64,000 bases of DNA from an uncultured Rickettsiales bacterium. Lineage in GTDB: Bacteria > Myxococcota_A > UBA796 > UBA9615. Position 1 is the stretch's first letter, and each line of letters begins with the position of its first letter. A program made the translations under genes and the position numbers. Below the pieces are notes generated by a model, which made no database searches, had not been told where the DNA came from, and saw only the letters and a program-made list of their open reading frames with translations. Location of the stretch: positions 15,105 through 79,104 of the forward strand of contig CAYFOA010000005.1 in assembly GCA_964344575.1 (NCBI GenBank). Reading direction: 5' to 3'. This document shows positions 26,293-62,742 of this stretch, one piece after another.

Positions 26293-26294
26293 CC

Positions 26295-46150: not shown

Positions 46151-47730
46151 GCGCGGACGCGGCGGCGGAGCCCGACGAGCCACCCCGCCGCGAGGAGGAC
46201 CGGCACGCTCGATGACGAGCCGGACGTCTCGCAGGCGCAGCCCTCGCCCGCCAGCTCGCCGCCGCCGGACGCTTGGTCGGTGTCGTCGTCGTCCCCGAGG
46301 TCGTCGTCGTCGGCGTCGTCATCGTCCCCGAAGTCGTCGTCTCCGAGGTCGTCGTCGTCGGTGACGTCGTCGTCGTCGTCGGCGTCGTCGTCGTCGTCGT
46401 CCACGGGGGGACAGCCCGGCAGATCCGGTGAGCCGTCGCCGTCCAGGTCGCCGCACCCCAGGAAGACGAACACGGCCCCCCGGTTGTCGCCGCCGAAGGG
46501 AAAGCCGGGATCACTCGCCACGACGTCGTCGAATCCGTCTCCGTTGACGTCCCCGGACACCATCCTCAGCCCGAGCGATTCCGCCTTCAGTCCGGTCGAC
46601 CAGGTCAGCGCCGCGGAGTCGGGGAGGGCGATGGAGCCCGTTCCGAGGAACACATGCACCTCGTCGGGACCGATCGAGGCGGTCACGAGATCCTGGTGGC
46701 CGTCACCGTTGAGGTCCCCCAGCCGAACGGAGGCCCCGACTTGCTGGCCGCCCTCGCCCTGATGGCTCCACGACGGCTCGTACGAGGGCCCGTCGGGGCC
46801 GCCCCCCCAGGCCCTCACGATGCCGTGGTCCTCACCTACGAAGTCCGGGTTGGTGTGGAGCGGGTTGCCCATCACGATGTCGTCGAACCCGTCGCCGTCG
46901 AGGTCCCCGAGGGCTGCTCCCCAAGCCGTCAAAGGGGGCCCATCCGCCCCGCAGACCGCCCACAGCGGCGTACCCCCCAGCGGTCCGTCGGGCTCAGCGC
47001 CGGCGTATGCGCGCGTGCAGGTTCTGGTGGCCACGAAGTCGTCGAGGCCGTCACCATTCAGGTCCCCTCCTGGCGTGACGAACTCCGTCAGAATCGCGAG
47101 TTCGCCGTCGGACAGCTCGGCGACCGGAGCCTGTTGGAGGCCGACGAGGGCGCCTCCGAGGTACACCTGCGCCGAGCCTCCCGATCTGGAGAGCACCGCG
47201 TCGTCCCATCCGTCGCCGTTGAGATCGCCGGGGCCCGCGACTTCCAAGCCCTGGCCCTCCTGGGAGGCTGCCCAAGACCACTCGCTTTGCAGACCTTCGG
47301 CGCTGCCGAGGTAGAGAACGACCCCCTCGAGCGCACCGGTTCCGGGGGCGCCGATCAACAGGTCGTCGAACCCGTCGTCGTTGGGATCGCCGACTGAGGC
47401 CAGGGACGCGCTGAACATGGCGTTGGCCGAGCCGCCGGTGGCCTCCCATCCGGCGGCAAGGGGCAGCTCGTCGGCACCGTAGAAGACGAGGACGCGCCCC
47501 TCGACGACCAATCCATTGCCTTGCCAGTGGTGCGTGCCGATCGCCCAGTCGTCGAACCCGTCGCCGTCGAAGTCGCCGATCGCCAACTCGGACCCGAGCT
47601 GTTCGTCCGCGTCGTCGCCTTCGAGATACCAGTCTTGGCCGTTCAAGGTCCCCGCGGACACGGTCGGAGAGAGACGATGGTGAGGATCGCTGCCGCCGAG
47701 GTCGGGACGAGGGGGAGACACTCCACGCAC
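46129..47730 (-). CDS. FG-GAP repeat protein with a poly-Asp tract and a MYXO-CTERM-like sorting tail. The N-terminus is unresolved.
   Basis: FG-GAP repeats (GDFDGDGFDD, GDLNGDGWDD...), a poly-Asp linker and a C-terminal GEGCACETSG...VPVLLAAGWLVGLRRR. No signal peptide is found in the body frame. An ATG overlapping the upstream stop (ATGA) at 47807 opens a different frame that stops after 54 codons. Confidence 0.5.
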   Translation of the reverse strand: MRGVSPPRPDLGGSDPHHRLSPTVSAGTLNGQDWYLEGDDADEQLGSELAIGDFDGDGFDDWAIGTHHWQGNGLVVEGRVLVFYGADELPLAAGWEATGGSANAMFSASLASVGDPNDDGFDDLLIGAPGTGALEGVVLYLGSAEGLQSEWSWAASQEGQGLEVAGPGDLNGDGWDDAVLSRSGGSAQVYLGGALVGLQQAPVAELSDGELAILTEFVTPGGDLNGDGLDDFVATRTCTRAYAGAEPDGPLGGTPLWAVCGADGPPLTAWGAALGDLDGDGFDDIVMGNPLHTNPDFVGEDHGIVRAWGGGPDGPSYEPSWSHQGEGGQQVGASVRLGDLNGDGHQDLVTASIGPDEVHVFLGTGSIALPDSAALTWSTGLKAESLGLRMVSGDVNGDGFDDVVASDPGFPFGGDNRGAVFVFLGCGDLDGDGSPDLPGCPPVDDDDDDADDDDDVTDDDDLGDDDFGDDDDADDDDLGDDDDTDQASGGGELAGEGCACETSGSSSSVPVLLAAGWLVGLRRRVRAQGAARS

Positions 47731-47803
47731 GCCGACAACGCGCGACCCCTCCCAACAGCCCGGCTGTCGCGGCTGCTGTCCATCCGGCGCTCCACCCGCT
47801 GGG

Positions 47804-49515
47804 TCATGTCCGCTCTGACGCTCTGTCGCGTTGCCGGCGGAGACAGAGCAGGGGAAGGAGCACCACCGGGAACGCGACGGCTCCGTCACCGCCGCAGGTG
47901 CAGCCGCCGCCGCTGGCCCCGTCGACGACCCCGTCGCAATCGTCGTCGAGACCATTCTCGATCTCCTCTGCTCCGGGGTAGATGGCCGAGGATTGGTCGT
48001 TGCAGTCGACGGACGCGTCGTAGCCGTCTCCGTCGCAATCGGTGCAGTCGTCATCGTCGTCCGTGCCGTCGTCGTCATCCGTGGCGTCGTCGTCGTCCGT
48101 GGCGTCGTCGTCGTCCGTGGCGTCGTCGTCGTCCGCCGCATCGTCGTCGTCTGCCGTGTCGTCGTCGTCTCCAGAGGCCGGCTCGCAGTCGGTCGAGTCC
48201 GGGACTCCGTCGCCATCGTCATCGGCGCAGGCGAACCAGAGGAAGACCGCCCCGGCGTCCTCGGCGACGGCGTCGTGCCTGGGCGCCCCGACGGCGAGGT
48301 CGGCGAAGCCGTCGCCGTTGACGTCGCTGACGATGGAGACCGCGTCGCCGAATCGCGCCGAGTCGGACCCCTCCGTGTCGGCCCAGGCGTCTGTCGCCGA
48401 CGGGCCCGAGGGAGACCCCAGGACGAGGAAGGCCCGCCCATGGTTGTCGGTGGGTGCGGACATCGACGGATCGCCGACGAGGATGTCCGCGTAGCCGTCG
48501 CCGTTCACGTCCGCGACCGACACGGCGAAACCGAAGTCGTCGGAGCCCACGCCGCCGGCGATCACGGCGTCCGCGGCCTGCGACGGTCCCGCGGTCGAGC
48601 CGTAGTGGACGTAGACCGCGCCCTGGGCATCGGGCGGATCGACGTAGTCCGGTGCGCCGATCACCACGTCGCTGTACCCGTCACCGTTGACGTCCCCCCC
48701 GTCCACGCTCAGGCCGAACGTCCACTGGGGTGCCGGGCCCTCGATCGTGGCGACGGGCTCCGACTCGAGGCCGGAGGCCGAGCCCAGGTAGACCTCCACC
48801 TTGCCCTGGTTCTCGACCACGCCATCCCAGTTCGGCGCGCCGTAGGCGACGTCGTCGTAGCCGTCGCCGTTCACGTCTCCGAGTCCGGCCAGGCTGTAGG
48901 GGATCTGGGCCAACTCCTGGTCACCCACGACGATCCAGCCGGGGAGGAGGCTCAGGGTGGTCGCCGGGTCACCATGGAACAGGTAGACCCGCCCCTCCTG
49001 TTCGTAGTCACCCGTGTAGGTGCGGGCGCCTACGAGGACGTCGTCGTAGCCGTCGCCGTCGACGTCGCCGGCGCCGGCTACGACGAGTCCGAACTGCTCC
49101 TCGTCCGACTGGCCGTCGAAGGCCCACGCGGCCGGGTCGACGAGTCCGTCTGTGCTGCCGCGGTAGAGGAAGGCTTCTCCGTCGTCGTCGTTCGCAGTGC
49201 GGGCTCCTACGAGCAGATCGTCGAACCCGTCCCCATCGACGTCCCCCGCACCATCGAGCGAATACCCGAAGAGGCCGTTGGAGTACTGCTCCCAGTCCGG
49301 CTCCTCCGCCGGTCCCGTCGTCGAACCCAGGAACAGCCGGGCCGGCCCGCGTCCGCTACGGGTTGACCTACCTCCCGACTTTCGTGCGGGCCCTCGAAGG
49401 ACCAGTCCGGGGTCGAACCCGCGACGGCCAGGGCTGCGGTCTCCAAGCTGGTCTCGGTGCAGGAGATCGTCCCAAGCGCGGCCACGAGCACCACTGGAAT
49501 CGAGATTCGGCTCAT
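47804..49515 (-). CDS. FG-GAP repeat lipoprotein with a poly-Asp tract and MYXO-CTERM tail. There is an apparent frameshift between the signal peptide and the body (possible pseudogene or sequence error).
   Basis: Signal-peptide ORF 49207..49515 (MSRISIPVVLVAALGTISC...) is in one frame. The FG-GAP body (DGAGDVDGDGFDD ... GGGCTCGGDGAVAFPVVLLPLLCLRRQ) is in another frame from about 49366 down to the stop at 47804. Confidence 0.5.
48062..48169 (-). repeat. Six tandem copies of an 18-bp GTC-rich unit (cgtggcgtcgtcgtcgtc) encoding a (T/A)DDDDA linker
   Basis: Three perfect units and three variant units read directly from the sequence. A similar but less regular GTC tract lies at about 46270..46410 in the neighbouring paralog. 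Confidence 0.55.
49292..49410 (-). repeat. Imperfect ~92-nt direct duplication flanked by 9-nt repeats (CCGGACTGG and GGGTTCGAC), enclosing a GC-rich hairpin (49344..49392), at the frame junction of the FG-GAP gene
   Basis: Two copies of the GST..PDW coding segment lie 110 nt apart, which is not a multiple of 3. The stem ggcccgc/gcgggcc encloses a 33-nt loop. Confidence 0.45.
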
Positions 49516-49559: not shown

Positions 49560-49636
49560 GAATTCGACAATCTCACTTCTGTCGAAGTAAATCGACATAG
49601 TGTCTTTTGTCGAATACCATCGACAAGATGTCGACG
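49560..49636 (+). promoter_or_regulatory. Three TCGACA/TGTCGA inverted-repeat sites (two with 10-nt spacers) in a locally AT-rich promoter/5' region of the AAA ATPase gene
   Basis: TTCGACA-N10-TGTCGAA at 49563..49586, TCGACA-N10-TGTCGA at 49592..49613, and TCGACA-N3-TGTCGA at 49620..49634. Confidence 0.4.
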
Positions 49637-50800
49637 CCCCTCCTCGATGTGGTCCGCGACTGGAGCTGGTGGGACCGGCCGCGGCGGGCCACTGTGCCCC
49701 GGGGCGTCGAGCTCCCCGCGGCGCTGAGCGAGACGCTCTGCCTCGTCGTTCAGGGCGTGCGCCGGTGTGGAAAGTCGACGTTGCTGGGACAGCTCGTGGA
49801 CCGCTACGGGCTCGATCCCCTGCGCTGCGCGTTCCTCAACTTCGAGGACCCGCGCCTCGTCGCGCGGCTCGATTGGACGGTGCTGGACGAGCTCGTGACC
49901 GCGTTCCGCGCGCGCCACGACGACGACCAGCCGCTCTACTTCTTCCTCGACGAGATCCAGCATGTCGACGGGTGGCAGCGGTGGCTGCGCGCCCAGCTCG
50001 ACCGCCCGCGTGGCCATGTCTTCACGATCACGGGCTCGAACGCCCACCTGCTGAGCGGGGAGCTGTCCACGTCCCTGACGGGCCGCCACCTGGTGGTCGA
50101 GCTGTTCCCCTTCGATCTGGACGAGCTCCGGACCGCGGATCCGGCCGCCGATCTCGCCGCCTACCTGGCCCACGGCGGATTCCCCGAGCCGGTGGGGAGC
50201 CCCGACCGCGACCGCCTCCTGAGGCAGTACTTCGCGGACATCGTCGAGCGCGATGTCCGGGAGCGCGCCGGCGCCCGCTCGGCGCTGCCGGTCCGGCAGG
50301 TCGTGCAGATGGTGTTCGAGGCGGCCGGCTCCGAGCTGAGCCTCCGTCGCGTGGCGGCGGCGACGGGCCTCGCGATCGAGACGGCGGGCGCCTACCTCGC
50401 CGCGGCGGAGTCGGCGTACGTCGTCCTGAGCTGCCCCTACTTCGCCTTCTCCGAGCGCCGCCGGGCGAGCCGCAACAAGAAGTACTACCCGGTCGACACG
50501 GGGCTGCGCCGCGTCTGCGTCACCCGGACGGGCGAGGACCGGGGCAAGTCCCTGGAGTGCGCCACCCACCTCGCGCTGCGCCGCCGCTTCGGCCCGGTGT
50601 TCTACTGGCGCGAGCGCGGCGAAGTGGACTTCGTCGTGCACCACGAGGGCCGCATCATCCCCGTCCAGGTGTGCTCGGACGGCCCCCAGGAGCGGCACCA
50701 CCGGGCGATCGAGTCCTTCTACGAGCGCTTCCCACAGGCCGAGGAGACGGTCTGGGTCAGCTTCGAGACGTTCGAAGAGGAGCTGGCGAGGCTGGACTGA
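49607..50800 (+). CDS. AAA-family ATPase with a C-terminal DUF4143-like domain (COG1373-type)
   Basis: Walker A GVRRCGKST and Walker B YFFLDEIQ. The more likely start is the second ATG at 49628 (MSTPLLDVV), downstream of the palindromes. Confidence 0.75.
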   Translation: MSNTIDKMSTPLLDVVRDWSWWDRPRRATVPRGVELPAALSETLCLVVQGVRRCGKSTLLGQLVDRYGLDPLRCAFLNFEDPRLVARLDWTVLDELVTAFRARHDDDQPLYFFLDEIQHVDGWQRWLRAQLDRPRGHVFTITGSNAHLLSGELSTSLTGRHLVVELFPFDLDELRTADPAADLAAYLAHGGFPEPVGSPDRDRLLRQYFADIVERDVRERAGARSALPVRQVVQMVFEAAGSELSLRRVAAATGLAIETAGAYLAAAESAYVVLSCPYFAFSERRRASRNKKYYPVDTGLRRVCVTRTGEDRGKSLECATHLALRRRFGPVFYWRERGEVDFVVHHEGRIIPVQVCSDGPQERHHRAIESFYERFPQAEETVWVSFETFEEELARLD

Positions 50801-50809
50801 CGCCGCCCC

Positions 50810-52351
50810 CTAGGTGTCGTACCACTCCGGCTTCACGAGGTTCGTGAACGTCTCGTGCTGCTTGATGGGGTTGATGCGCTGCTTGACCGCGTCGAACGTC
50901 ACCCCGAGCGCCACCTTGAGCCACCACTGGTACATCTGGCGCTTGTACTTCTCGGGGCTGAGCAGCCCCTTCATCAGCCACTTCGGGTTCACGAACTTGC
51001 GGTTGATGTCGTACAGCGCGCGGGAGATCTCGTCCCGCGTCATGTAGTCGCTCTCCATCATCGGAGTCATCCAGTCGAACTCCGTGAAGTCGTCCAGCGT
51101 GATCCAGCCGTTCTCCATCGCCTCGTCGAAGAGCGGCGTCCCCGGCACCGGGGTGATGGGGTGGAACGCGGGGTAGTCGACGTTCAGCTCCTTGGCCAGC
51201 TCCGCCTGGCGGAACATCGACTCCCGGGTCTCGTACTTCGTGCCGACGATGAACGTCGCCTGCTTGAAGATCTGGGGGTACTTGTCGAGGATGCGGAACG
51301 TCTCCCGCAGCTGGTCGTTGTTGTAGAAGCCCTTGTTGAAGTCCTTGAGGCGCTCGTCCTCGGCCCGCTCCACCCCGATGCAGAGGTGCCGCAGCCCCGC
51401 GGCGACCAGCTTCTCCATGATCCCGCGCTTCTCGTCGCGGATGATGCAGTCGCTCCGCATGAACGCGAACCAGTCGATGTCCATGCCGGAGCGGATGATC
51501 TCCTCGGCGAACTGGTCGTTCCAGCGGGCGTCGATGTTCCAGGACTCGTCGACCCACACGAACGACCGCTTGCCGTGCTTGTAGTAGAGCTCGTGGATCT
51601 CGGCGATCGTCGAGTCCACCGACTTCGTCCGCCACCGCGGGCGGAGGCTGATGTAGCCGTCCTCGTCCTCGTCCCGGTGGGCCATCTGCGTCCACCACAC
51701 GCAGAAGCTGCACGACGCCGTGCAGCCGCGGCTGTGGTGGATGGTCGCGCCGCCGGGGCTGAAGCTCAGCGACGACGTGCCGTACAGCTCCATCGGTACG
51801 AGGTCGTAGGCCGGCATGGGGAGCTCGTCGAGGTCCTCGATGAGGTGCCGCGCCCGCGTCTTGATGAACTGCTTGTCGTCGCCCTCGCCCTCGACGTAGA
51901 CGATGCCCGCGACCGAGCTGTAGTCGGGCTTCGCCTTGCCGATCTCCTCGACCAGCGCCCGCAGCGTGTACTCGCCCTCCGCGCAGACGCAGAAGTCGAT
52001 GGGGTTCTCGCCCATGTACTTGTTGAAGAGGTTCGTGAAGTGCGCCCCGCCGACGACGCGCTTGGCGCGGGGGATGACGTCTGCGGCCATGTTGATGACG
52101 CGCATCGCCTCGTGGGCGTACAGGGCGTGGTTCTCGCCGACGCAGAGGACGTCGGGGTCCCGCTCGCGCATCGCGTTCTCGAGGGAGCGCCAGCCCATCT
52201 TCAGGGGCATGCAGTCGTAGACGGAGACGTCGTGGCCGGCCTCCCGGAGGACCGCCGAGAGGTACACCAGCGACTGCGGCACGAGGTAGTTGTCGCCCTC
52301 GCTGACGAACGGCCAGTAGTACCGCGGGCTGAAGACGAACATGACCTTCAT
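50810..52351 (-). CDS. B12-binding radical SAM protein
   Basis: N-terminal cobalamin-binding-like domain (MKVMFVFSPRYYW...), a CTASCSFC radical SAM cluster and a C-terminal extension. GC is lower than its surroundings. Confidence 0.8.
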   Translation of the reverse strand: MKVMFVFSPRYYWPFVSEGDNYLVPQSLVYLSAVLREAGHDVSVYDCMPLKMGWRSLENAMRERDPDVLCVGENHALYAHEAMRVINMAADVIPRAKRVVGGAHFTNLFNKYMGENPIDFCVCAEGEYTLRALVEEIGKAKPDYSSVAGIVYVEGEGDDKQFIKTRARHLIEDLDELPMPAYDLVPMELYGTSSLSFSPGGATIHHSRGCTASCSFCVWWTQMAHRDEDEDGYISLRPRWRTKSVDSTIAEIHELYYKHGKRSFVWVDESWNIDARWNDQFAEEIIRSGMDIDWFAFMRSDCIIRDEKRGIMEKLVAAGLRHLCIGVERAEDERLKDFNKGFYNNDQLRETFRILDKYPQIFKQATFIVGTKYETRESMFRQAELAKELNVDYPAFHPITPVPGTPLFDEAMENGWITLDDFTEFDWMTPMMESDYMTRDEISRALYDINRKFVNPKWLMKGLLSPEKYKRQMYQWWLKVALGVTFDAVKQRINPIKQHETFTNLVKPEWYDT

Positions 52352-52358
52352 CGTTCGC

Positions 52359-53177
52359 TCATCCCTCCTTGCGGCCCACGGCGAGGTGGGCGCGCGGCAG
52401 CGGCGCGAGGTCGGGGTCGTCCCCGAGCCGGCGCTCCAGGTCCAGCAGGGCATCGGCGTAGTCGGCGTCCGGCAGGCGGTCCGGATCGACGCACCCCATC
52501 AAGGGTCCGTCGAGCACCCGGAACAACCCCCTCGATCGCACGACGTCCAGCCCGGCGCCGAGCAGTATAGCCGCCAGTTCGCCGGCCGCGAGGAGCCTGA
52601 CCCAGCGGTCCCCGGGGACCTCGATGATGCGGCGACGTACGGCGTTCTCGACCTGTTCTGGGGACAGCCCCGAGGGGTCCGCGAGGAGGCCGCCGGGCCA
52701 GGCCTCGACCGACGCGATCAGGTGCCCGCCGGGTGCGAGCGTCGCGGCGAGGCGCTTCGCCGTGGCGGCCGCGTCGTCGAGGTAGCAGAGGAGCTCCATG
52801 GCGAGGACGAGGTCGTAGCCTCCGCCGAGGTCGGCGACGTCGACGTCCCCCTCCCGGAGCTCCACCCGGTCGCCCACCCCGGCGGCGGCGACGTGCCGGC
52901 GGGCGGCGTCGAGGGACGGCGCGCAGGCGTCGATGGCGACGACGTGGTGCCCGGCCCGCGCCAGGGGCACCGCCCACCGCCCGATCCCGCAGGCCGCGTC
53001 GAGCACCCGGAGCGGCCGGTCGGCCTCCAGCAGGTCCCCGATCGCGTCCCCATACAGCCGCGTCTGCAGCGCCTTGAACGCCCGTCCAGGGGACTCCGGA
53101 TCGAGGAAGTCCATCCACTCGGGGTACTCGGCCCAGCCCTTGTGCAGGCCGGCGAGGTTCCAGGCGACCGCGCTCAC
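52359..53177 (-). CDS. Class I SAM-dependent methyltransferase
   Basis: Motif I VLDAACGIGRWA plus acidic post-I and motif II residues. 272 aa. Confidence 0.75.
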   Translation of the reverse strand: MSAVAWNLAGLHKGWAEYPEWMDFLDPESPGRAFKALQTRLYGDAIGDLLEADRPLRVLDAACGIGRWAVPLARAGHHVVAIDACAPSLDAARRHVAAAGVGDRVELREGDVDVADLGGGYDLVLAMELLCYLDDAAATAKRLAATLAPGGHLIASVEAWPGGLLADPSGLSPEQVENAVRRRIIEVPGDRWVRLLAAGELAAILLGAGLDVVRSRGLFRVLDGPLMGCVDPDRLPDADYADALLDLERRLGDDPDLAPLPRAHLAVGRKEG

Positions 53178-53211
53178 GCCGCCACTGTAGACGCAGACGG
53201 GCGGGCTCGGC

Positions 53212-56200
53212 TCAGGGCAGGGGGTTGACGAAGACGTTGACCCCGTCGACCCCGGAGGTGCTCAGCCCGCTGCACGTACCCGCCGTCGTGGCGACCAGGT
53301 CGAGCCGGCCGTCGCCGTCGAGGTCCGCCGCGCCCACCTCCCAGCCGGCCGTCGCCCACGCGTCCGTCGCCTCGAAGGACCAGCCGTCGCCGATCGCGCT
53401 GAGGCCGCCGCCGCCCGCGTAGTACGCGACGATCTCGGCGCCGGGGAGGACGAACGCCTTGCCGATCGGGCCGCACGACCGGGCGAACCCGTGGAGCAGG
53501 TCGGGGACGCCGTCCCCGTCGACGTCGGCCGCCCGCGGCTGGCGGTAGGGGATGGGGACGCCCTCGTACTGGATGTCCGCGCCGGCCCCGAAGATCACCA
53601 CCGGGTTGGCGACGAGGTAGGCGCCGGAGTGGAGCTGCATCGAGGTGCTGCTCCTCCCCCCGAGGAGCACTTCGTCGTGGCCGTCGCCGTTCCAGTCGGG
53701 CAGGCCGCCGACGACCCAGCCGGCCTGGGCCCCGCCCGCTCCCGTGACCTGGACGTCGGACGCGGAGGCGGCGAGGCCTCCGTTCGCCGCCATGGTGGCG
53801 TCGAAGACGATGAACGCGTCGCCGTCCGCGAACTCGGGGAAGGTGGTCCCCGGGGCGCCCGCGACGAGGTCTGTGAGCCCGCTCCCGTCGACGTCCGCGC
53901 CGGAGAGCGCGCCGGTCCACGCCCCGCTCCGCGAGCCGGCGCCGAGGAAGCCGTCGGCGTCCTCGCCCCACAGCGCGAACCAGGCGTCCGCCTCGTCCAG
54001 CGCGCCGCCGGCGAGCAGGTCCGTGCCGTCGAAGACGAACGCGCTGCCCCCGTTGGCGGCCAGGGGGGAGTGCGGTCCGCCGAGGGCGAGGTCGGGCAGG
54101 CCGTCGCCGGTCGCGTCGGGGAGGGCGGCGACCGACCGGAACCCGTCGCCCCCCGCGGTGTGGACGATCGAGACCGCCGCCGGCAGGCCCGCGGGATCGG
54201 TGACGACGTCGACCCCGAACACGATCGTGGCGTCGCCCCCGACGAACGCGAGGTCGTCGCGGCCGTCGCCGTCGAGGTCGCCGAGCGCGACGGCCGCCGT
54301 CTCCTCCACCGCCAGCACGGCGTCGGCGGCGAAGTGCTCCCCCAGGTCGAGCGGTCCGAACCAGACCTCGCCGTCGATCACCACGTCGTCGAAGCCGTCC
54401 CCGTTGACGTCCGCGCCGGCGACGAGCGACTGGCCCCACACGCCGCTCCCGGGGAAGCGGAGCGTCGCCGCGGTGACGACGAACGCGTCGCCGCCGTCGC
54501 AGTTCGCGTCGACCCCGTCCGTCCGTCCCGCCGCCGTGGCGTCGTCCCACGAGCCGGGGAAGATCGCGGGGTCGAGGTCGTCGCAGTCCCCCTGGCAGGG
54601 GAACCAGCCGTCGCCGTCGCCGTCGGCGTCGACGCCGTCGTCCACGACGCCGTCGCAGTCGTTGTCGACGAGGTCGCACAGCTCCGGCTCGCCGGGCGAC
54701 GTGGAGTCGACCGCGTCGTCGCAGTCGCCGCCCCCCAGCACCTCCGGGGCGGTCCCCGACCACGGCTCGCACTCCACCCAGCCGTCCGCATCGTCGTCCT
54801 CCTCGTCCCCGGGGACCACACCGTCGCAGTCCTCGTCGAGGCCGTCGCACACCTCGACCGCGCCGGGGTGGAAGGCGGCGTCGAGGTCGTCGCAGTCGGC
54901 GCACGCGATGTAGCCGTCGCCGTCGCCGTCCGCCTCGTCGGCGGGGACGACGCCGTCGCAGTCGGAGTCGACGCCGTCGCAGGCCTCGCCCCCGCCGGGG
55001 AGCACGGCCGGGTTGAAGTCGGAGCAGTCTCCCTCGCACGGCGAGACCCCGTCGGCGTCGAGGTCGGCGGTGTTCAGGAGCGGGTCGCCGTCGTCGCAGT
55101 CGCCGGCGCAGGAGGTCTCGCCGTCGCCGTCGGCGTCGAGGGAGGTCAGGGCGGGGTCGGTGTCGTCGCAGTCGGAGCAGGCGGGGTCGCCGTCGCCGTC
55201 GTCGTCCGCCTCGTCGGGGGGGAGCGTCCCGTCGCAGTCGGTGTCGAGGCCGTCGCACAGCTCGGCGGGGGCGGCGGGGGAGGCGCCGGGGTCGTCGTCG
55301 GCGCAGTCGCCGTCGCACACCCGGTACCCGTCGCCGTCGGCGTCGTCGCAGTCGCCCGCGGGGCCGCAGGCGGGGGCCTCGTCGTCGCAGTCCTCGAACT
55401 CCTGGGCGAGGCCGTCGCCGTCGGCGTCGACGCCGTCGGTCCCGTCGCAGTTCTGGTCGACCCCGTCGGCGTACCCGTCGGCGGCGGCGGGGTAGGCGGC
55501 CGCGTCGAGATCGTCGCAGTCCGGGCTGCACGGACCGTCGCCGGGGCAGGCCGCGCCGCAGGTGTCGTAGCCATCGCCGTCCACGTCCCGGGAGTCGACG
55601 CCATCGTCGCTGTCGTCGCAGTCCGAGCAGGCGAAGTCCCCGTCGGCGTCGGCGTCCTCCTCGCCGCCGGCGGCCGCGGTGGCGGGGTCGCAGTCGTCGT
55701 CGGCGCCGTTGCACAGCTCGGGGGCGTCGGGCGCGGCATCGGCGCGGGCGTCGTCGCAGTCGCCGTCGCAGATCCGCCACCCGTCGCCGTCCGCGTCGGC
55801 CTCGTCGGCGGGGGTCTCGGCATTGCAGTCGTTGTCGAGGCCGTCGCAGATCTCGTCGTGCCCGGGGTGCCGCGTGGGCTCGGCGTCGTCGCAGTCGAGG
55901 TCGCACACCCGGTAGTCGTCCCCGTCCGCGTCGGCGCAGTCGCCGGGGGCGAAGCAGCCCGAGTGGGCGTCGTCGCAGTCCGAGCCGCCGCACAGGGGGT
56001 GGTCGTTGAGGACGCCGTCGCCGTCCACGTCGCAGCGGACGTCGCCGCCGGCGCAGTCGTTGTCGATCCCGTCGTCGGCGACCTCCTCGGCGTCGGGGTG
56101 GGTGGCGGCGTCGTCATCCCGACAGTCCTCGCCGCCGGACGCCTCCGAGGCGAAGGTGTCGCCGTCGGCGTCGACGCCGTCGGCTCCGTCGCAGTTCTGG

Positions 56201-56376
56201 TCGACGCCGTCGCCCACCCGGTCCGGAGCGCCGGGGTAGATGGTGGGGTCGTCCCCGTCGCAGTCAGCGGCGTCGGCGGCCCCGTCGCCGTCGAAGTCGG
56301 AGAGCGCGCCCCCCGAGCCGTCGGCGCAGCCGGCCAGCCACAAGGGCAGCAGGACGGCGAGGACGCGGCCAGGCAT
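53212..56376 (-). CDS. Giant lipoprotein with ~15 MopE-like Cys/Asp-rich putative metal-binding repeats, then FG-GAP repeats
   Basis: Lipobox LWLAGC. Reiterated CxDxDxD...HPGAxExCDGxDNDCDG units across ~600 aa. C-terminal DVNGDGFDD / DLDGDGRDD FG-GAP repeats. Confidence 0.75.
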   Translation of the reverse strand: MPGRVLAVLLPLWLAGCADGSGGALSDFDGDGAADAADCDGDDPTIYPGAPDRVGDGVDQNCDGADGVDADGDTFASEASGGEDCRDDDAATHPDAEEVADDGIDNDCAGGDVRCDVDGDGVLNDHPLCGGSDCDDAHSGCFAPGDCADADGDDYRVCDLDCDDAEPTRHPGHDEICDGLDNDCNAETPADEADADGDGWRICDGDCDDARADAAPDAPELCNGADDDCDPATAAAGGEEDADADGDFACSDCDDSDDGVDSRDVDGDGYDTCGAACPGDGPCSPDCDDLDAAAYPAAADGYADGVDQNCDGTDGVDADGDGLAQEFEDCDDEAPACGPAGDCDDADGDGYRVCDGDCADDDPGASPAAPAELCDGLDTDCDGTLPPDEADDDGDGDPACSDCDDTDPALTSLDADGDGETSCAGDCDDGDPLLNTADLDADGVSPCEGDCSDFNPAVLPGGGEACDGVDSDCDGVVPADEADGDGDGYIACADCDDLDAAFHPGAVEVCDGLDEDCDGVVPGDEEDDDADGWVECEPWSGTAPEVLGGGDCDDAVDSTSPGEPELCDLVDNDCDGVVDDGVDADGDGDGWFPCQGDCDDLDPAIFPGSWDDATAAGRTDGVDANCDGGDAFVVTAATLRFPGSGVWGQSLVAGADVNGDGFDDVVIDGEVWFGPLDLGEHFAADAVLAVEETAAVALGDLDGDGRDDLAFVGGDATIVFGVDVVTDPAGLPAAVSIVHTAGGDGFRSVAALPDATGDGLPDLALGGPHSPLAANGGSAFVFDGTDLLAGGALDEADAWFALWGEDADGFLGAGSRSGAWTGALSGADVDGSGLTDLVAGAPGTTFPEFADGDAFIVFDATMAANGGLAASASDVQVTGAGGAQAGWVVGGLPDWNGDGHDEVLLGGRSSTSMQLHSGAYLVANPVVIFGAGADIQYEGVPIPYRQPRAADVDGDGVPDLLHGFARSCGPIGKAFVLPGAEIVAYYAGGGGLSAIGDGWSFEATDAWATAGWEVGAADLDGDGRLDLVATTAGTCSGLSTSGVDGVNVFVNPLP

Positions 56377-56465
56377 CCCGCGATCCTACCGTCGCGGACC
56401 ACATTCGAGCGCTGCCCCAGTCCCCCGTGTGTTAGAAGCCCCGCCCCACCCCGGAGGAGGCACCC

Positions 56466-57335
56466 ATGCATCGCGTTTTCCTGACCTGCGCCCTGTGCGC
56501 CGCTGTCCTGCTCCCCGCGTCGTCCTTCGCCAAGAAGGACAAGAAGAGCGACGAGGTCGATCCCGAGGACCACGAGAACCACTTCGAGGAGGTCGATCCC
56601 GTCGAGGTGGGGGACATCACCGTCACGTTCTCCAACCAGCACGCGCAGATGGAGTTCATCATGGTGAAGGCGAAGGTGAAGAACGACGCCGACCAGTACC
56701 TCTTCATCGAGCCGCGCGAGTCGAGCTGGATCGTCGACGGCGAGGAGGAGGCGGCCGACGCGAGCAAGCCGAAGTCGGTGCTCATCCACCCGTTCAAGGA
56801 GAAGAGCGTCACCTTCAAGATCAAGGGCGACCTCGACAAGGGCGCCGACTACCACGTCGAGGAGTGCAGCCTGAAGCTCGACGGGTTCAGCGTGGCGACC
56901 AACGAGGGGGTCTCCATCGACACCGACGACTTCCAGATCCCGCCGTCGCAGAACAAGTTCAAGGTCAACGACTTCGACTGCAAGCTCGACCACCTCAAGA
57001 ACGACACCCACTTCACCAAGGCGCAGTTCAGCTGCACCTACAAGGGCGACCACGTCGGCTTCATCGACCCCAGCGTCGCCGGCTGGCGCATCCCCTCGGG
57101 GCAGGAGTTCGCGAACGAGGAGCGGAACGCCAAGAAGGTCATGCTCACGCGCGGCAAGTCCGCCAAGTTCGCCGTCAGCTCCGACATCGACTCCGGCATC
57201 TTCGACATGGAGGAGGACGGCGTCTGGCACCTCATCTGGAACGACACGTTCAGCGAGAGCAAGCGCAAGGGCGTCGAGATGGAGACCGTCGACTTCGAGC
57301 TCGACGAGGAGAAGACCGAGGAGGAGAACTCCTAG
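56466..57335 (+). CDS. Secreted Lys/Asp/Glu-rich hypothetical protein with lower GC
   Basis: Signal peptide MHRVFLTCALCAAVLLPASSFA and a strong SD (GGAGGAGG) 7 nt upstream. Composition is very different from its neighbours (many AAG/AAC codons). Confidence 0.6.
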   Translation: MHRVFLTCALCAAVLLPASSFAKKDKKSDEVDPEDHENHFEEVDPVEVGDITVTFSNQHAQMEFIMVKAKVKNDADQYLFIEPRESSWIVDGEEEAADASKPKSVLIHPFKEKSVTFKIKGDLDKGADYHVEECSLKLDGFSVATNEGVSIDTDDFQIPPSQNKFKVNDFDCKLDHLKNDTHFTKAQFSCTYKGDHVGFIDPSVAGWRIPSGQEFANEERNAKKVMLTRGKSAKFAVSSDIDSGIFDMEEDGVWHLIWNDTFSESKRKGVEMETVDFELDEEKTEEENS

Positions 57336-58042
57336 GTCGCGTCCTCCGCGTACTTCAGCGCGCCCGCCGCCAGCTCTGCGCGGGTCGCGTCCCCGTTGGT
57401 CGCGTGGGACGGATCAACCCGCTCGATGCGTCCCGTCAGCCGCCCCCGCGCCCGCCACGGGCCGAGGTCGCCGAGCACGTCGAGGAGCTTGTGCCAGGCC
57501 GGCTCGTCGCGCATCCGCGGACGGCCGCCGTAGAGCGCGGCGCCGTCGCGGAAGACGACCGCGTCGTCGGGGCGGGCGCCGGGGAACAGCGGGCGGAGGT
57601 CGCGGGCGTGATCCGCGTCGATGAAGGTCCGGGCGTCCGCCGGCGCCGCGCCGCCCCGCCACCGCACCGTCGCCCTGCCGAAGGTCACCGACACGTCCAG
57701 ATCGGGCCGGCGTCCCCCGAACCCGGCCGCGCGCAGGGCGCGGACCCAGGGCCGCGCGCTGCCGTCGAGGATCGGCGCCTCGCCGTGGTCGAACCGCAGG
57801 TCCACGTCGTCCACGTCCAGCATCACGAGCGCCGCGAAGAGGTGCTCCGGCATCTGCACCTGGCCCGCGATCGACGAGCGGTGGGGGAGGGGAGCGTGGT
57901 CGTCGGGGTTGAGGGCCCGCATCGGCTCGGTCCCCACCGCCCACCGCCACCCCGCGCCGGCGCGCCCCGGCGTCACGACGACCGTCGCCGGACCGCCCCC
58001 GAACAGCGCCCGCCCGGCGATCCGGAAGCCGCGCCGCCTCAC
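57332..58042 (-). CDS. LpxC-like (UDP-3-O-acyl-GlcNAc deacetylase fold) protein, shorter than canonical LpxC
   Basis: Motifs FDHGEAPILDGSARPWV (cf. EAPIMDGSAAPF), HKLLDVLGDL and the C-terminal PSHATNGDATRAEL resemble LpxC. The GTG start overlaps the upstream stop (GTGA). About 236 aa. Confidence 0.5.
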   Translation of the reverse strand: MRRRGFRIAGRALFGGGPATVVVTPGRAGAGWRWAVGTEPMRALNPDDHAPLPHRSSIAGQVQMPEHLFAALVMLDVDDVDLRFDHGEAPILDGSARPWVRALRAAGFGGRRPDLDVSVTFGRATVRWRGGAAPADARTFIDADHARDLRPLFPGARPDDAVVFRDGAALYGGRPRMRDEPAWHKLLDVLGDLGPWRARGRLTGRIERVDPSHATNGDATRAELAAGALKYAEDAT

Positions 58043-58368
58043 TTGTCCGGCAGCTCGAACGTCGCCTTGTCGCCGACCCCGATCCCGCGCTCCGCGAACC
58101 ACCCCTGGTTCACCTCCAGCGCGTACAGCGCCGGCTTCGCCGAGCGGTGCGACTTCCTCGACTGGGGCTGCATGTCCTGGATGTCGACGATGACGCCGTC
58201 CGCGTCGAGGAACGCGATCGACAGCGGCACGAACGTGTTCTTCATCCAGAAGCCGAGCGTCTTCTCGGACTCGTAGACGAAGAGCATCCCGGCGTTCTTC
58301 CCCAGCTCGCGGCGGTACATCAGCCCCCGGCTCTGCTGGTCCGGCGTGAGCGCCACCTCCGCCTTCAC
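58039..58368 (-). CDS. DUF192 domain protein
   Basis: 109-aa core as in the ORF track. The upstream in-frame sequence encodes a signal-peptide-like segment ([19 protein letters not shown]) but contains no ATG/GTG/TTG. The only candidate is a CTG overlapping the ruvB stop at about 58482. Confidence 0.6.
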   Translation of the reverse strand: MKAEVALTPDQQSRGLMYRRELGKNAGMLFVYESEKTLGFWMKNTFVPLSIAFLDADGVIVDIQDMQPQSRKSHRSAKPALYALEVNQGWFAERGIGVGDKATFELPDK

Positions 58369-58478
58369 GGTGTGGCCGGCGACGTCGATCTTGATGACCT
58401 TCAGCCCCGCCTCGCTCGTCCCCGTGCACGACGGGGCCTGGAGGACGAAGAGCGCGGCGAACGCGAGCGTGAGGACCC

Positions 58479-59501
58479 TCAGAACAGCGACCCCGTCTTG
58501 CCCGCGGGGGTGCGGACGCCGAGGTGGCGGTAGGCGAGGTCGCCGGCGACGCGGCCCTGGCGGCTCCGGACGATGTAGCCCTGCTGGACGAGGTACGGCT
58601 CGTAGACGTCCTCCAGCGTGTCCCGCTCCTCGCCCACGGCGGCGGCCAGCGCGTCGATCCCCACGGGGCCGCCGGCGAACCGCTCCACCAGGGCCGTCAG
58701 GAGGCGGCGGTCCATCTTGTCGAGCCCGGCGCGGTCGACGTCCAGCCGCTCCAGGGACGACGCCACCACCGCGTCGTCGATCGACCCGTCCCCCTCGACC
58801 TGGGCGAAGTCCCGCACCCGGCGGAGCAGCCGGTTCGCGATCCGCGGCGTCCCCCGTGACCGCCGGGCCAGCTCCAGGGCCGCGCTGTCCGCGATCGGGA
58901 CATCGAGCAGGCCCGCGCTCCGGCGGACGATCGTGGCGAGCTCCTCGGCCGAGTAGAAGTCGAGCACGGCGACGTACCCGAAGCGCGCCCGGAACGGCGA
59001 GCTGAGCAGCCCCTCGCGGGTCGTGGCGCCGACCAGCGTGAACGGCGGGAGGTCGAACTTCAGCGCCCGCGCGGCCGGCCCCGCGCCGAGCACGATGTCG
59101 ATCTCGTAGTCCTCCATCGCCGGGTAGAGGACCTCCTGGACCGCCCGGTTGAGGCGGTGGATCTCGTCGATGAAGAGGACGTCCCCCTCGTCGAGGTTCG
59201 ACACGATCGCGGCGAGGTCCCCGCCGCGCTCCAGCACCGGCCCGGACGTCGCCTTGATCTGGACGCCCATCTCGCGGGCGATGACGTGCGCGAGCGTCGT
59301 CTTGCCGAGCCCCGGGGGACCCGCGAAGAGCACGTGGTCCAGCGCCTCCGACCGACGCCGCGCGGCCTCGATGAAGACGCTCAGGTTGTCGAGGATCGCC
59401 CGCTGCCCGACGTACTCGTCCAGGGTCGAGGGGCGGAGGCTGATCTCCTCGCCGATCTCGTCCGCGTCTTCCTGCACTTCGGGGGACAGGTCGCGCTCCA
59501 C
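58479..59501 (-). CDS. ruvB: Holliday junction branch migration ATPase RuvB
   Basis: Walker [10 protein letters not shown], Walker B DEIHRL and the RuvB C-terminal winged-helix. 340 aa. Confidence 0.95.
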
Positions 59502-59510
59502 GGTCCGAGT

Positions 59511-60428
59511 CTAGCCCCCCGGAGGGGTCTGTGGGACCGAGAGACGGAACATCTGATCAGCGTCCGCCGCGATGACCGGCAGGAGGTCCTTCCAGGGGGT
59601 CTCGGGGGCGACCTCGATCGGGTCGGCGTCCGCGGTCCAGGTCGTCACGATGGCGCCGACCGGGGGGCCGGGGAACATCGGGATCTGGAGCATCGTGACG
59701 ATGCGGGGGGCCTGCTTGGGGCACTCCTTCCAGATCGAGTCGATGCTCGCCGCGAGCAGCGAGCACTTCGCCTCCGGCGCCGCCACCGCCACCGCCGTGA
59801 ACGCATGCACCGCCACCTCGCAGCCGTCGACCTCCGAGGAGGTGCGCTCGGCGAGCCGCGTCTGGAGCTCCCCCGGCGCTCTCGTCTCCAGCTCGGCGAA
59901 CACCGACTCGGCGAGCTCCGGGACGACGAACGGGGGCGGCTCCGCGGCCCCGGGGATCCGGACCAGCCACTGCATCGTGTGGAACCCCGCCGCGTCCGCC
60001 ACCGCCGCCGCCTCGGCGACCCGCGACGCGGGCACGTCGGGCTGGATCGACCACATCATCCGGCCCTCGAAGCGGTACTTCGGCGCCATCTCGGCGATCG
60101 CGCGTGCCTGGTCCGCCTTCTCCCGGAGCATGTCCCCGAGGGCCTGCGCGTCGCGGACGAGGACTCCGTCGAGGACCGTCTCGTCGGGCTTCAGCACGGC
60201 CGAGACGCTGAGCTCCGGCAGCGTGGTGGGGCCGTCCCACGCGAGGAGTCCTTCGGAGGTGACGAAGACCTCCGGACGGCTGCAGTACGCCGCTTCGAAC
60301 CCGGCGCTGTCGAGCCGGGGCGCTGCGTCGGCGGCGGGGGCGGCCGCCGGCGCGGGGTCGCCGCCCCCGGAGCAGGCGCCCGCGAGGCCGAGGGCGAGGG
60401 CGAGGCCGACGGCGGCGGCGGCCCTCAC
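59511..60428 (-). CDS. Hypothetical lipoprotein inserted between ruvA and ruvB
   Basis: Lipobox LGLAGAC. 305 aa. Its start overlaps the ruvA stop. Confidence 0.6.
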   Translation of the reverse strand: MRAAAAVGLALALGLAGACSGGGDPAPAAAPAADAAPRLDSAGFEAAYCSRPEVFVTSEGLLAWDGPTTLPELSVSAVLKPDETVLDGVLVRDAQALGDMLREKADQARAIAEMAPKYRFEGRMMWSIQPDVPASRVAEAAAVADAAGFHTMQWLVRIPGAAEPPPFVVPELAESVFAELETRAPGELQTRLAERTSSEVDGCEVAVHAFTAVAVAAPEAKCSLLAASIDSIWKECPKQAPRIVTMLQIPMFPGPPVGAIVTTWTADADPIEVAPETPWKDLLPVIAADADQMFRLSVPQTPPGG

Positions 60429-61036
60429 GCCGGACTCAGCGCCTTCAGCGCGCGCCGGAGCAGCGTCTGCACCGTGTCGTCGGGGGTCGGGTCGGCCGCC
60501 GCCAGGGCCTTCTTGATCTCCCGGGCGTTGTAGCCGAGCGCCGCCAGCGCGGCCGTCGCGTCCTCCACCGCGGGGGGCTCGACGGGCATCGTCTCGTCCA
60601 ACGCCGCCGACAGCGCGGGGTGCGGCAGCAGCTTGCCGAGCTTGTCCTTCAGCTCCAGGCAGAGCCGCGCCGCCGTCTTCTTCCCGAGGCCCGGGATCCG
60701 CGTCAGGCCGGCCACGTCGTCGCGGGCGATCGCGTCCGCCAGCGCCTTCGGGTCGACCGTCCCGACCACCGCGAGGGCCAGCTTGGGGCCGATCCCGGTC
60801 ACGCTCTGGACCACCCGGAAGACCCGCCGGTCCGCCTCCGTGCCGAACCCGTACAGCGTGATCGCGTCCTCCCGGACGTGGGTGTGGACGTGGAGGACGA
60901 CCTCGGCGCCGACCGCCGGCAGCTCCATCAGCGCCCGCGGCGCCGTCAGCACCTCGTACCCGACGCCGTCCCCCGCCTCGACCAGCACCCGGTCCGGCTC
61001 CGTCGCGATCAGCTTGCCCCGCAGTCGCCCGATCAT
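60425..61036 (-). CDS. ruvA: Holliday junction DNA helicase subunit RuvA
   Basis: MIGRLRGKL N-terminus, an HhH pair (GIGPKLA...GLTRIPGLGKKTA) and the C-terminal domain III. Confidence 0.9.
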   Translation of the reverse strand: MIGRLRGKLIATEPDRVLVEAGDGVGYEVLTAPRALMELPAVGAEVVLHVHTHVREDAITLYGFGTEADRRVFRVVQSVTGIGPKLALAVVGTVDPKALADAIARDDVAGLTRIPGLGKKTAARLCLELKDKLGKLLPHPALSAALDETMPVEPPAVEDATAALAALGYNAREIKKALAAADPTPDDTVQTLLRRALKALSPA

Positions 61037-61043
61037 CGCCCTG

Positions 61044-61586
61044 CTACCCCCTCACCTTCCGCAGCGGCTTCCGCGGCTCGCCGCCGCCGCCCCCCGTCGC
61101 CTCGACCACCTTGCTCGCGAACTTCGCCGCGTGAGCGTGGCAGATGGCCACCGCGAGCGCGTCCGTCCGGTCCGCGGCGCCCTCGATCTCGTCCCGCAGC
61201 AGCTTCGACACCATCGCCCGGACCTGCTCCTTGTCGGCCGCCCCGTTGCCCGTGACCGCCTTCTTGACCGTCGCCGGAGGGTACTCGCACACGCTCAGCC
61301 CCGCCTGCGCGGCGGCCAGCACCAGCACCCCCCGCGCGTGCCCCAGCTGCAGCGCCGACCGGGCGTGCTCGGCGTGAAACACGGCCTCGATGGCGAAGGC
61401 GTCCGGCGTCGTCCGCGTCAGGATCGCGGCCAGCTCGCGGTGGAGGTGGGCCAGCCGATCGGGGAACGCCGCCTTCTTCGGCGGCCGGATCAGTCCCGAC
61501 TCGAGGTGCAGGAGGCGACCGCCGTCGCGCCGCACCAGGCCCCAGCCCGTGCAGAACCCGCCGGGATCGACGCCGAGGACGATCAC
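61044..61586 (-). CDS. ruvC: Crossover junction endodeoxyribonuclease RuvC
   Basis: VIVLGVDPG N-terminus (RNase H fold with catalytic D), 180 aa. The GTG start overlaps yebC's stop. Confidence 0.9.
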   Translation of the reverse strand: MIVLGVDPGGFCTGWGLVRRDGGRLLHLESGLIRPPKKAAFPDRLAHLHRELAAILTRTTPDAFAIEAVFHAEHARSALQLGHARGVLVLAAAQAGLSVCEYPPATVKKAVTGNGAADKEQVRAMVSKLLRDEIEGAADRTDALAVAICHAHAAKFASKVVEATGGGGGEPRKPLRKVRG

Positions 61587-62350
61587 CCGGCTGCGATCCG
61601 CTCCATCTCGGCGTCCGAGATCTCGAAGTTCGCGTGGACGTTCTGGACGTCGTCGTTGTCCTCCAGCGCCTCGATCAGCGCCAGCAGCTTCTCGGCGTCC
61701 GACCCCTCCACCGGGACCGTCGTCGACGGGATCCACCACAGGCCGTACTCCTGCAGCTCGACGCCCTCGCCCTCGAGCCCCTCGCGGAGCATCTCCAGGT
61801 CCCCGACCTCGCAGACGACCTGCCACACCGCGTCGCCGTTGTCGTTGACGTCCTCCGTCAGGTCGTCGGCGCCGTGCTCCATCCCCGCCATCATCAACGA
61901 CTCCTCGTCGATGGCGTCCCGGGCCACGAGCGCGCGCCCCACCCGCCGGTAGCTGTGGGCCGCCGCGCCGCTCGCCGCGAGGGCGATCCCGCGCTTGCTC
62001 AGGAGGTGCTTGATCTCCGGCCCCGTCCGCGCCCGGTTGTCCGTCAGCACCTCGACCAGCAGCGCCACCCCGCCGGGCCCGTAGGCCTCGTACATGATCT
62101 CCTCGTACTCCTGCCCCTCGAGCAGGCCGGCACCCTTCTTGATGGCGCGGTCGAGGTTGTCCCGGGGGAGCGAGACGGCCTTCGCCTTGGCGATCGCGAG
62201 GCGGAGGCGGGGGTTGGCGTCGGGGTCCGGTCCGCCGACGCGGGCGGCGACCATGATGTCCTTGACGACCTTGCTGAACAGCTTGGAGCGGCGAGCGTCC
62301 TGGGCACCCTTGCGGTGCTTGATGTTGGCCCATTTGCTGTGGCCGGCCAT
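61583..62350 (-). CDS. yebC: YebC/PmpR family DNA-binding transcriptional regulator
   Basis: MAGHSKWANIKHRK N-terminus diagnostic of the YebC family. 255 aa. Confidence 0.9.
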   Translation of the reverse strand: MAGHSKWANIKHRKGAQDARRSKLFSKVVKDIMVAARVGGPDPDANPRLRLAIAKAKAVSLPRDNLDRAIKKGAGLLEGQEYEEIMYEAYGPGGVALLVEVLTDNRARTGPEIKHLLSKRGIALAASGAAAHSYRRVGRALVARDAIDEESLMMAGMEHGADDLTEDVNDNGDAVWQVVCEVGDLEMLREGLEGEGVELQEYGLWWIPSTTVPVEGSDAEKLLALIEALEDNDDVQNVHANFEISDAEMERIAAG

Positions 62351-62397
62351 CGACTTCCTCCGTGAAGGGTGCGATCGGATAGCATGCGGGCCGAGTC

Positions 62398-62742
62398 GTG
62401 ACCAGCGCACCCGAGCAACGCCGCCGCCGCCGCCGCCCCCTCATCGTCGAGGTCCAGGTGCAGCAGAGCGACGAGGTCTACCTCTACACCGCGCGCAACG
62501 TCAGCGCGGGCGGCATGTTCATCGACACGCCCGTCCCCCTCCCCCCCGGGACCGCGCTCCAGCTCGAGTTCAAGCTCCCCGGCGCCGACGCCGTCGAGGT
62601 CGCCGCCGAGGTGCGGTGGAACACCGAGCTCGCCGCCGCCCCGGGGACGCGCGTCAAGCACCCCGGGATGGGGGTCGTCTTCCGGGACCTCCCCCAGGTG
62701 GTCTACGACGAGCTGCTCAGCTGGGTCGAGGGCGCCGCGTGA
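62398..62742 (+). CDS. PilZ domain protein (c-di-GMP receptor)
   Basis: RxxxR (RRRRRRP) and D/NxSxGG (RNVSAGGMF) c-di-GMP-binding motifs. Confidence 0.7.
   Translation: MTSAPEQRRRRRRPLIVEVQVQQSDEVYLYTARNVSAGGMFIDTPVPLPPGTALQLEFKLPGADAVEVAAEVRWNTELAAAPGTRVKHPGMGVVFRDLPQVVYDELLSWVEGAA

Follow-up and report, generated by a model that had tools for sequence, protein, structure and literature searches.

A predicted methyltransferase and B12-binding radical SAM gene pair conserved downstream of lpxC in uncultured aquatic Myxococcota

In a 64-kb stretch of DNA from an uncultured member of the Myxococcota (contig CAYFOA010000005.1; hereafter the window), two adjacent genes on the minus strand encode a predicted class I S-adenosylmethionine (SAM) methyltransferase (MTase) of 272 residues (52359–53177) and a predicted B12-binding radical SAM (rSAM) enzyme of 513 residues (50810–52351). 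As judged from the comparison of orthologous loci, the pair has been inherited vertically under strong purifying selection and is a conserved core-genome part of a broad clade of uncultured aquatic Myxococcota. The same comparison places its ancestral position directly downstream of yebC–ruvCAB–DUF192–lpxC and shows that a 4.2-kb block, carrying a large lipoprotein gene and a gene for a 289-residue protein, was inserted between lpxC and the MTase gene in the lineage of the window. Taken as a whole, we consider this account of a vertically inherited core MTase–rSAM pair, next to which the lipoprotein block was inserted later, reasonably probable; that the two enzymes jointly tailor an envelope-type metabolite is proposed with low confidence.

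Conservation and inheritance of the gene pair

Searches with the rSAM protein returned 657 homologues of nearly constant length (~510 residues), which are 75–91% identical in the near clade and 52–59% identical in a broad set of metagenome-assembled genomes (MAGs) labelled Myxococcota, Deltaproteobacteria or Oligoflexia. An exhaustive, profile-free search gave 453 representatives below E = 1e-30, and full-length relatives of about 510 residues extended down to 31% identity. When genomes were scanned at one genome per species, 80 loci were returned, all of them in Myxococcota-type MAGs and none in a cultured strain. Clustering of the neighbouring genes revealed the conserved order yebC–ruvC–ruvA–ruvB–DUF192–lpxC–MTase–rSAM. 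In the window, this anchor of core genes lies on the minus strand within 58479–62410 (yebC, 61583–62410; ruvA, 60425–61036; ruvB, 58479–59501), as assigned by Pfam and by synteny across the loci. It is followed, on the same strand and within 57332–58429, by a DUF192 gene (~58039–58368) and by a short gene for an LpxC-like deacetylase (~57332–58040), which were recognized from synteny and from a match to Pfam LpxC of 94.7 bits.

Linkage of the MTase gene to the rSAM gene was counted over 91 loci by a profile search that is independent of gene calling. In 67 of these loci the MTase gene is located directly upstream of the rSAM gene and in the same orientation, and in 78 it lies within 2.5 kb. 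Among 77 non-redundant loci, lpxC stands directly upstream of the MTase gene in 27 and within 3 kb in 42. In the 41 loci that hold all three genes, the mean pairwise identity of the rSAM enzyme (0.662) equals that of RuvB (0.661), the value for the MTase being 0.479. The identity matrices of the rSAM enzyme and RuvB are correlated with r = 0.83, a value reached by none of 2000 Mantel permutations, and the MTase matrix correlates with both RuvB (r = 0.82) and the rSAM enzyme (r = 0.87). Since the rSAM enzyme diverges at the rate of RuvB, its matrix is congruent with that of RuvB and the core-gene neighbourhood is conserved, the loci show the pattern of vertical inheritance.

The lipoprotein, MTase and rSAM genes run in the same direction on the minus strand (50810–56376), and sequence and gene calls agree here with the first-pass annotation of this DNA. 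The start of the rSAM gene is the ATG at 52351, because homologues align from this methionine and the product has 513 residues in public annotations of identical contigs; the upstream ATG at 52453, which was taken by a mechanical open reading frame (ORF) and would overlap the MTase gene by 95 nt, was discarded. At the MTase/rSAM junction (52352–52370, minus strand), read directly from the sequence, the MTase stop codon TGA (52361–52359) precedes the rSAM ATG by a 7-nt spacer, and a Shine-Dalgarno-like AAGGAGG (52370–52364) falls within the final MTase codons. This layout is typical of translational coupling, and the junction is also short in close relatives. A gap of 34 nt separates the lipoprotein stop codon from the GTG start of the MTase gene; judged solely by this distance, the pair is probably read through from the lipoprotein gene. 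A scan of 50500–57600 for promoters and terminators revealed no promoter and a single terminator-like site, which lies on the wrong strand and is at chance level. No second copy of either the rSAM or the MTase gene was found in the 64-kb window.

The first-pass annotation had described both genes as visibly lower in GC than their flanks and the pair as possibly acquired horizontally, naming codon use and vertical placement beforehand as the points that would decide. The rSAM gene is indeed low in GC (64.7%, against a window mean of 73.6%). However, the MTase gene, at 75.0%, exceeds the mean, and of the pair the rSAM gene alone is low-GC. Codon positions 1 and 2 account for the whole of its deficit (GC1 0.57, GC2 0.38), and its GC content at synonymous third positions (GC3s), 0.994, is the second highest among the 29 genes scored. 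In the codon-usage scan, a leave-one-out synonymous-codon log-likelihood was compared with the expectation for the amino-acid composition of each gene. The difference obtained for the rSAM gene (+0.126) does not deviate, being comparable with those of ruvA (+0.098) and ruvB (+0.101), and the value for the MTase gene (−0.091; GC3s 0.932) lies inside the window range of −0.198 to +0.172.

Furthermore, the low GC of the rSAM gene is shared by the family. Of 78 non-redundant orthologous loci, whose genomes span 49–75% GC, 76 have an rSAM gene that lies below its flanks (mean difference −5.3 points). Across these loci GC1 (~0.56–0.67) and GC2 (~0.38–0.45) are nearly constant, and GC3 follows the host (r = 0.963 against ruvB GC3). 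The low GC is a family-wide effect of constraint on the composition of the protein, in which K, N, F, Y, I, M, D and E abound, and is not due to foreign origin. The same effect is displayed by the 289-residue gene of the inserted block (GC 62%, GC3 0.98), and more generally a GC dip in a very GC-rich genome need not signal foreign DNA. With codon use that does not deviate and a grouping with vertically inherited orthologues, at a divergence congruent with RuvB, both of the points set beforehand speak against horizontal acquisition, which is therefore refuted.

An inserted lipoprotein block upstream of the pair

The gene that precedes the pair (53212–56376, minus strand) encodes a protein of 1054 residues with a signal peptide and the lipobox LWLAGC (MPGRVLAVLLPLWLAGC). 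Pfam recognizes 10 Cu-binding_MopE stretches in it, 13 repeat cores have the form DC[DS]D, and FG-GAP repeats occupy the C-terminal region; 50 of its 53 cysteines are located in the first 620 residues and aspartate makes up 21% of the protein. Its codon use is native (GC3 0.98). The lipobox, the repeat cores and the Pfam matches bear out the earlier description of a MopE-repeat lipoprotein, and Pfam likewise upholds the accompanying calls of a class I MTase and of a B12-binding rSAM enzyme with the motif CTASCSFC. The second gene of the block (56466–57335, plus strand) is divergent from the large lipoprotein gene and specifies a predicted secreted protein or lipoprotein of 289 residues (MHRVFLTCALCAAVLLPASSFAKKDKK…), which is rich in K, D, E, F and N and has no match in Pfam or NCBIfam.

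Among the genome loci, L012 is closest to the window, with an rSAM enzyme that is 91% identical. When the re-oriented window was compared with L012 by blastn, three segments aligned, comprising yebC, ruvC and ruvA; ruvB, DUF192 and lpxC; and the MTase and rSAM genes. Between the last two, homology stops at window position 57390 and resumes at 53193, two points that are only 28 nt apart in L012. In L012 the stop codon of the lpxC-like gene overlaps the GTG of the MTase gene as GTGA. The 34-nt spacer of the window (53178–53211, minus strand), when read against L012, keeps a relic of this ancestral overlap between the lpxC-like stop and the MTase start (…GGCGGCGTGAGC…), the relic …GCGTGAGC… standing directly upstream of the MTase start. 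The blastn gap and the junction relic show that the block at 53194–57389, which is missing in the closest relative, is an insertion.

In accordance with this, lpxC runs straight into the MTase gene in the close relatives L017–L019, and other lineages hold different inserted genes at the lpxC/MTase junction. The lipoprotein gene precedes the pair only in the window's own contig family (L001–L003) and is absent from this position in L012 and in all other orthologous loci. The first-pass annotation had linked the pair to the lipoprotein; on the comparison of loci, however, its position before the pair is a lineage-specific juxtaposition and not a functional association.

At least five large secreted proteins of the FG-GAP/MopE/ASPIC type are encoded in the 64 kb (14466–16091, 23950–27225, 46129–48441, 47804–49402 and 53212–56376), which suggests that this paralogous family is strongly expanded in this genome. 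Several of these genes have GC3 values of 0.81–0.89, slightly under those of housekeeping genes.

Identity and candidate function of the two enzymes

The rSAM protein consists of an N-terminal B12-binding domain (PF02310, residues 21–134; 53.2 bits against a cut-off of 32.1), a radical SAM barrel with a CxxxCxxC motif (PF04055, residues 205–379; 36.1 bits against 29.5) and a conserved C-terminal helical domain. Within the cluster motif CTASCSFC, residues C210, C214 and C217 do not vary among 50 sequences. An AlphaFold2 (AF2) model (pLDDT 84.6) matches the folds of AprD4, CysS, TsrM, MgmA, OxsB and TokK, with query TM-scores (TMq) of 0.58–0.67, E values of 1e-15 to 4e-20 and identities of 16–19%. 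Domains and motif on the one hand, and fold on the other, both assign the protein to the class B (B12-binding) radical SAM superfamily. The class B enzymes (the COG1032 ‘BchE/P-methylase’ group), including the solved TokK, CysS, TsrM, MgmA and OxsB, share its architecture; these five are natural-product enzymes, whereas the present protein is a clade-wide, core-genome enzyme, and AprD4 is a non-cobalamin outlier among the solved structures. By these sequence comparisons, the rSAM enzyme belongs to a highly conserved orphan subfamily within a well-known enzyme class.

None of the NCBIfam models reaches its cut-off with the rSAM protein. The best curated model is BchE (TIGR02026; 195.7 bits against 481.35, residues 21–489), which gives 145–190 bits with the orthologues. 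Lower scores are given by the hopanoid models HpnJ (104.2 bits against 577.6) and HpnR (75.6 against 650), the ladderane model TIGR04072 (94 against 360), and Sden_1168 (81.9 against 575), PhpK (63.1 against 600) and KedN5 (54.1), where cut-offs are 575–700. ApyD (74.9 against 750) and rSAM_ocin_1 (61.3, far under its cut-off) were also matched. Thus BchE and the hopanoid type, which had been named earlier as candidate families, are not borne out; HpnP, Fom3 and GenK were not among the model matches, no direct comparison with their sequences having been made. Were the substrate an envelope lipid, HpnJ, HpnR, HpnP, the ladderane enzyme of TIGR04072, Gmm and Cds, which belong to the same enzyme class, would be plausible analogues, but the HpnJ, HpnR and ladderane scores are far under their cut-offs and the loci contain no shc or hpn genes. 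Lipid-modifying B12-binding rSAM enzymes and the general class B mechanism have been reviewed (PMC13459092). Sequence searches of the PDB with either protein gave generic, weak matches only, and the distant rSAM representatives (31–46% identity) carry no informative names. We found no literature on this Myxococcota family of B12-binding rSAM enzymes and MTases, or on it as ‘BchE-like’; publications on bchE in Myxococcota and on cobalamin-dependent rSAM enzymes with lipids provided background only.

By sequence, the MTase is a generic class I enzyme (Pfam Methyltransf_23, Methyltransf_25, Methyltransf_12 and Methyltransf_11; 51–62 bits) and is the conserved partner of the rSAM enzyme. Among 31 orthologues there is little or no variation in the motif SVEAWPG and in DAACGIGR, the motif that binds SAM. 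The invariant residues D60, G64, G66 and D83 supply the glycine-rich motif I and the acidic motif II, and YPEWMDFL and SVEAWPG are specific to the family. The AF2 model (pLDDT 97.3) has a methyltransferase fold. Its closest solved structures, cap elements included, are CmoM (SmtA; the tRNA cmo5U carboxyl methyltransferase; 8joz and 4htf, TMq 0.66–0.70) and TM1389 (TMq 0.71), at 20–24% identity, most other methyltransferases giving about 0.51–0.59. The scores against CmoM (NF008264; 41.8 bits, cut-off 366) and BchM (TIGR02021; 46.7 bits, cut-off 158.9) reflect the SAM-binding core only, and those against ApyS (23.3 bits) and the daptide methyltransferase (57.2 bits) are far under the cut-offs. 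The MTase differs from CmoM in its own motifs and in being strongly acidic. Both proteins are acidic in all orthologues: the MTase has a median pI of 4.81 and a net charge of −6 to −26, and the rSAM enzyme a median pI of 5.95.

We tentatively propose, as one possibility, that the pair tailors a single metabolite, probably an envelope lipid or glycolipid, in two SAM-dependent steps. The [4Fe-4S] cluster of the rSAM enzyme would cleave SAM to give a 5'-deoxyadenosyl radical, which would abstract hydrogen from an unactivated carbon. The next step of the enzyme would most likely be a methyl transfer from methylcobalamin, as in class B methylase chemistry, the alternative being a non-methylating radical rearrangement. 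The class I MTase, for its part, would methylate a nucleophilic oxygen, nitrogen or carboxylate on the substrate of the rSAM enzyme, which may be a small metabolite, probably hydrophobic or associated with the envelope. The hints that point to the envelope are weak and consist of the linkage to lpxC in 42 of 77 loci and of the GT2 genes, Arn-like genes (DegT, GT2 and PMT_2) and B12/SPASM rSAM genes found around relatives both close and distant. A further hint is the acidity of both proteins, which lends no support to a nucleic-acid substrate. The contexts of the distant relatives (B12/SPASM rSAM enzymes, GT2, U32 peptidase and Arn-like genes) hold no shared partner that would fix the substrate.

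Several points weigh against this proposal. All relatives come from uncultured organisms and bear generic or wrong names, and function is predicted from sequence and models. The linkage to lpxC could be plain core-genome synteny, since ruvCAB, whose function certainly has no relation to the pair, shows linkage that is just as good. In about 14% of the loci no MTase gene lies within 2.5 kb upstream, and hence the two enzymes need not act together. Moreover, the best fold match of the MTase, CmoM, is a tRNA enzyme and points away from lipids, and that of the rSAM enzyme, AprD4, is not a methylase and uses no cobalamin. Methyl transfer and even cobalamin binding by the rSAM enzyme, for which no sequence motif is diagnostic, are therefore to be taken as predictions.

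It is also conceivable, though tentatively so, that the cassette performs an uncharacterized cobalamin-dependent modification that defines the clade, in which the substrate and possibly the reaction as well would be new. Candidates would be C-methylation of lipid A or of another envelope lipid co-inherited with lpxC, or a methyl ester followed by a radical step in the manner of BchM and BchE. If this were true, these planktonic Myxococcota would need B12 for one of their core functions. Finding the function would give a role to an orphan family of B12-dependent rSAM enzymes that is as conserved as RuvB, and would bear on the cobalamin dependence of the clade.

A role in housekeeping RNA modification, in which a CmoM-like MTase and the rSAM enzyme would act on an unactivated carbon of a tRNA or rRNA base or side chain, appears unlikely to us. 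The fold matches of the MTase to CmoM and TM1389 and the RuvB-level conservation in a core-gene neighbourhood are in line with such a role, as is the finding that two distant rSAM relatives adjoin a U32 peptidase gene and one of them also a chorismate mutase gene. These are the enzyme types of prephenate-dependent tRNA U34 hydroxylation. However, the CmoM model is matched over the Rossmann core only and far under its cut-off, and both proteins are acidic in every orthologue. The U32 peptidase and chorismate mutase (CM_2) neighbours belong to paralogues that are 34–41% identical and have no MTase partner, and we know of no B12-dependent rSAM enzyme that modifies RNA.

More doubtful still is chemistry of the BchM/BchE type on a substrate other than chlorophyll, whereby the MTase would methyl-esterify a carboxylate and the rSAM enzyme would anaerobically oxidize or cyclize the activated side chain. 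BchE is the best curated model and aligns over nearly the full length of the rSAM protein, the MTase weakly matches BchM and the ChlM structure 4qdj, and the gene order, MTase then rSAM, mirrors the order of reactions in which BchM precedes BchE. BchE chemistry has also been reconstituted in vitro (PMC13598231). Yet the BchE model is unspecific: it is the generic best match of every B12-binding rSAM paralogue tested, some of which score higher and all of which fall far under 481 bits. BchE was rejected as a functional lead for this reason, the model being the top match (230–263 bits) even for unrelated paralogues in neighbouring loci. The BchM match is no better than those to UbiG, CpaM and the daptide methyltransferase. 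Tetrapyrrole genes occur in none of the loci, and no (bacterio)chlorophyll genes (bch, chl or puf) were found in the window or in the loci inspected for their genes, at distances of up to about 10 kb. Public records label the rSAM family ‘hypothetical’, ‘radical SAM protein’ or, in KEGG style, ‘anaerobic Mg-protoporphyrin IX monomethyl ester cyclase’. The ‘BchE’ label is an over-annotation; true myxobacterial BchE is reported to be 60–80% identical to proteobacterial BchE (PMC10576062), unlike the present family. Left in place, the label could create the false impression that Myxococcota MAGs represent anaerobic phototrophs.

We regard it as highly improbable that the genes form a tailoring pair for a secondary metabolite or a ribosomally synthesized and post-translationally modified peptide, after the manner of ApyD/ApyS, the daptide methyltransferase or the polytheonamide-type C-methylases. 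The weak NCBIfam matches to ApyD, ApyS, the daptide methyltransferase and rSAM_ocin_1 that suggest it are all far under cut-off. No precursor peptide, protease, transporter, nonribosomal peptide synthetase or polyketide synthase gene is conserved nearby, and sequence conservation as strong as that of RuvB, at a fixed, clade-wide core position, is unlike accessory biosynthetic clusters. The least credible account is that of a low-GC, horizontally acquired cassette that methylates lipids, hopanoids or antibiotics and came to lie behind the lipoprotein gene: the 9-point GC deficit of the rSAM gene and the lack of conservation, in relatives, of the ATPase gene downstream of it would fit, but the codon use of the rSAM gene is typical of the host, the MTase gene is not low-GC, the deficit is family-wide and restricted to codon positions 1 and 2, core-gene synteny is kept, divergence is equal to and congruent with that of RuvB, and what was inserted is the lipoprotein block and not the pair.

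Neighbouring genes and minor observations

Downstream of the pair, the rSAM gene is convergent with a gene for an ATPase with Pfam domains AAA_14 and DUF4143 (49607–50800, plus strand), the two stop codons being 9 nt apart. This gene occurs in the contig family of the window itself (complete in L001 and L002) and is not found downstream of the pair in other relatives. Among the orthologues, the conserved genes downstream of the pair include those for a HAD hydrolase, a second B12-binding rSAM enzyme, enolase, thiolase, 3HCDH, an arylsulfotransferase (ASST)-like protein and an MscS/cNMP channel; each of these is limited to a subclade and is not interpretable.

Upstream of the pair, the gap between ruvA and ruvB holds a lipoprotein-like ORF of 305 residues (59511–60428, minus strand) without a Pfam match. 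The corresponding gap in L012 contains a different gene, of 388 residues and on the opposite strand, and this junction is therefore another variable insertion point. The lpxC-like gene is short in the near clade of the window (~233–253 residues), the products in the broader clade having 280–304 residues.

Further B12-binding rSAM paralogues, of 468–494 residues, occur in many orthologous loci, with 26 extra cluster members across 90 loci. They lie 6–10 kb downstream of the pair in L004, L006, L014 and L017, and were also seen in L007, L027, L031, L041, L043, L047, L049 and others. In the close clade they are accompanied by GT2 and a 338-residue rSAM protein, and in another clade by a HAD hydrolase and enolase. 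More distant paralogues in L093 (34% identity) and L094 (41%) form arrays of up to five B12-binding rSAM genes beside a U32 peptidase gene. The L093 array also adjoins genes for chorismate mutase and an arylsulfotransferase-like protein, and the arylsulfotransferase-like family (cluster c23) flanks the orthologue in about 10 loci as well. Finally, several public MAG records that contain the locus (L014, L015, L025, L027, L031, L040 and others) are titled Klebsiella pneumoniae, Rickettsiales, Enterobacterales or Bifidobacterium breve, titles that clash with both their GC content and their gene content.

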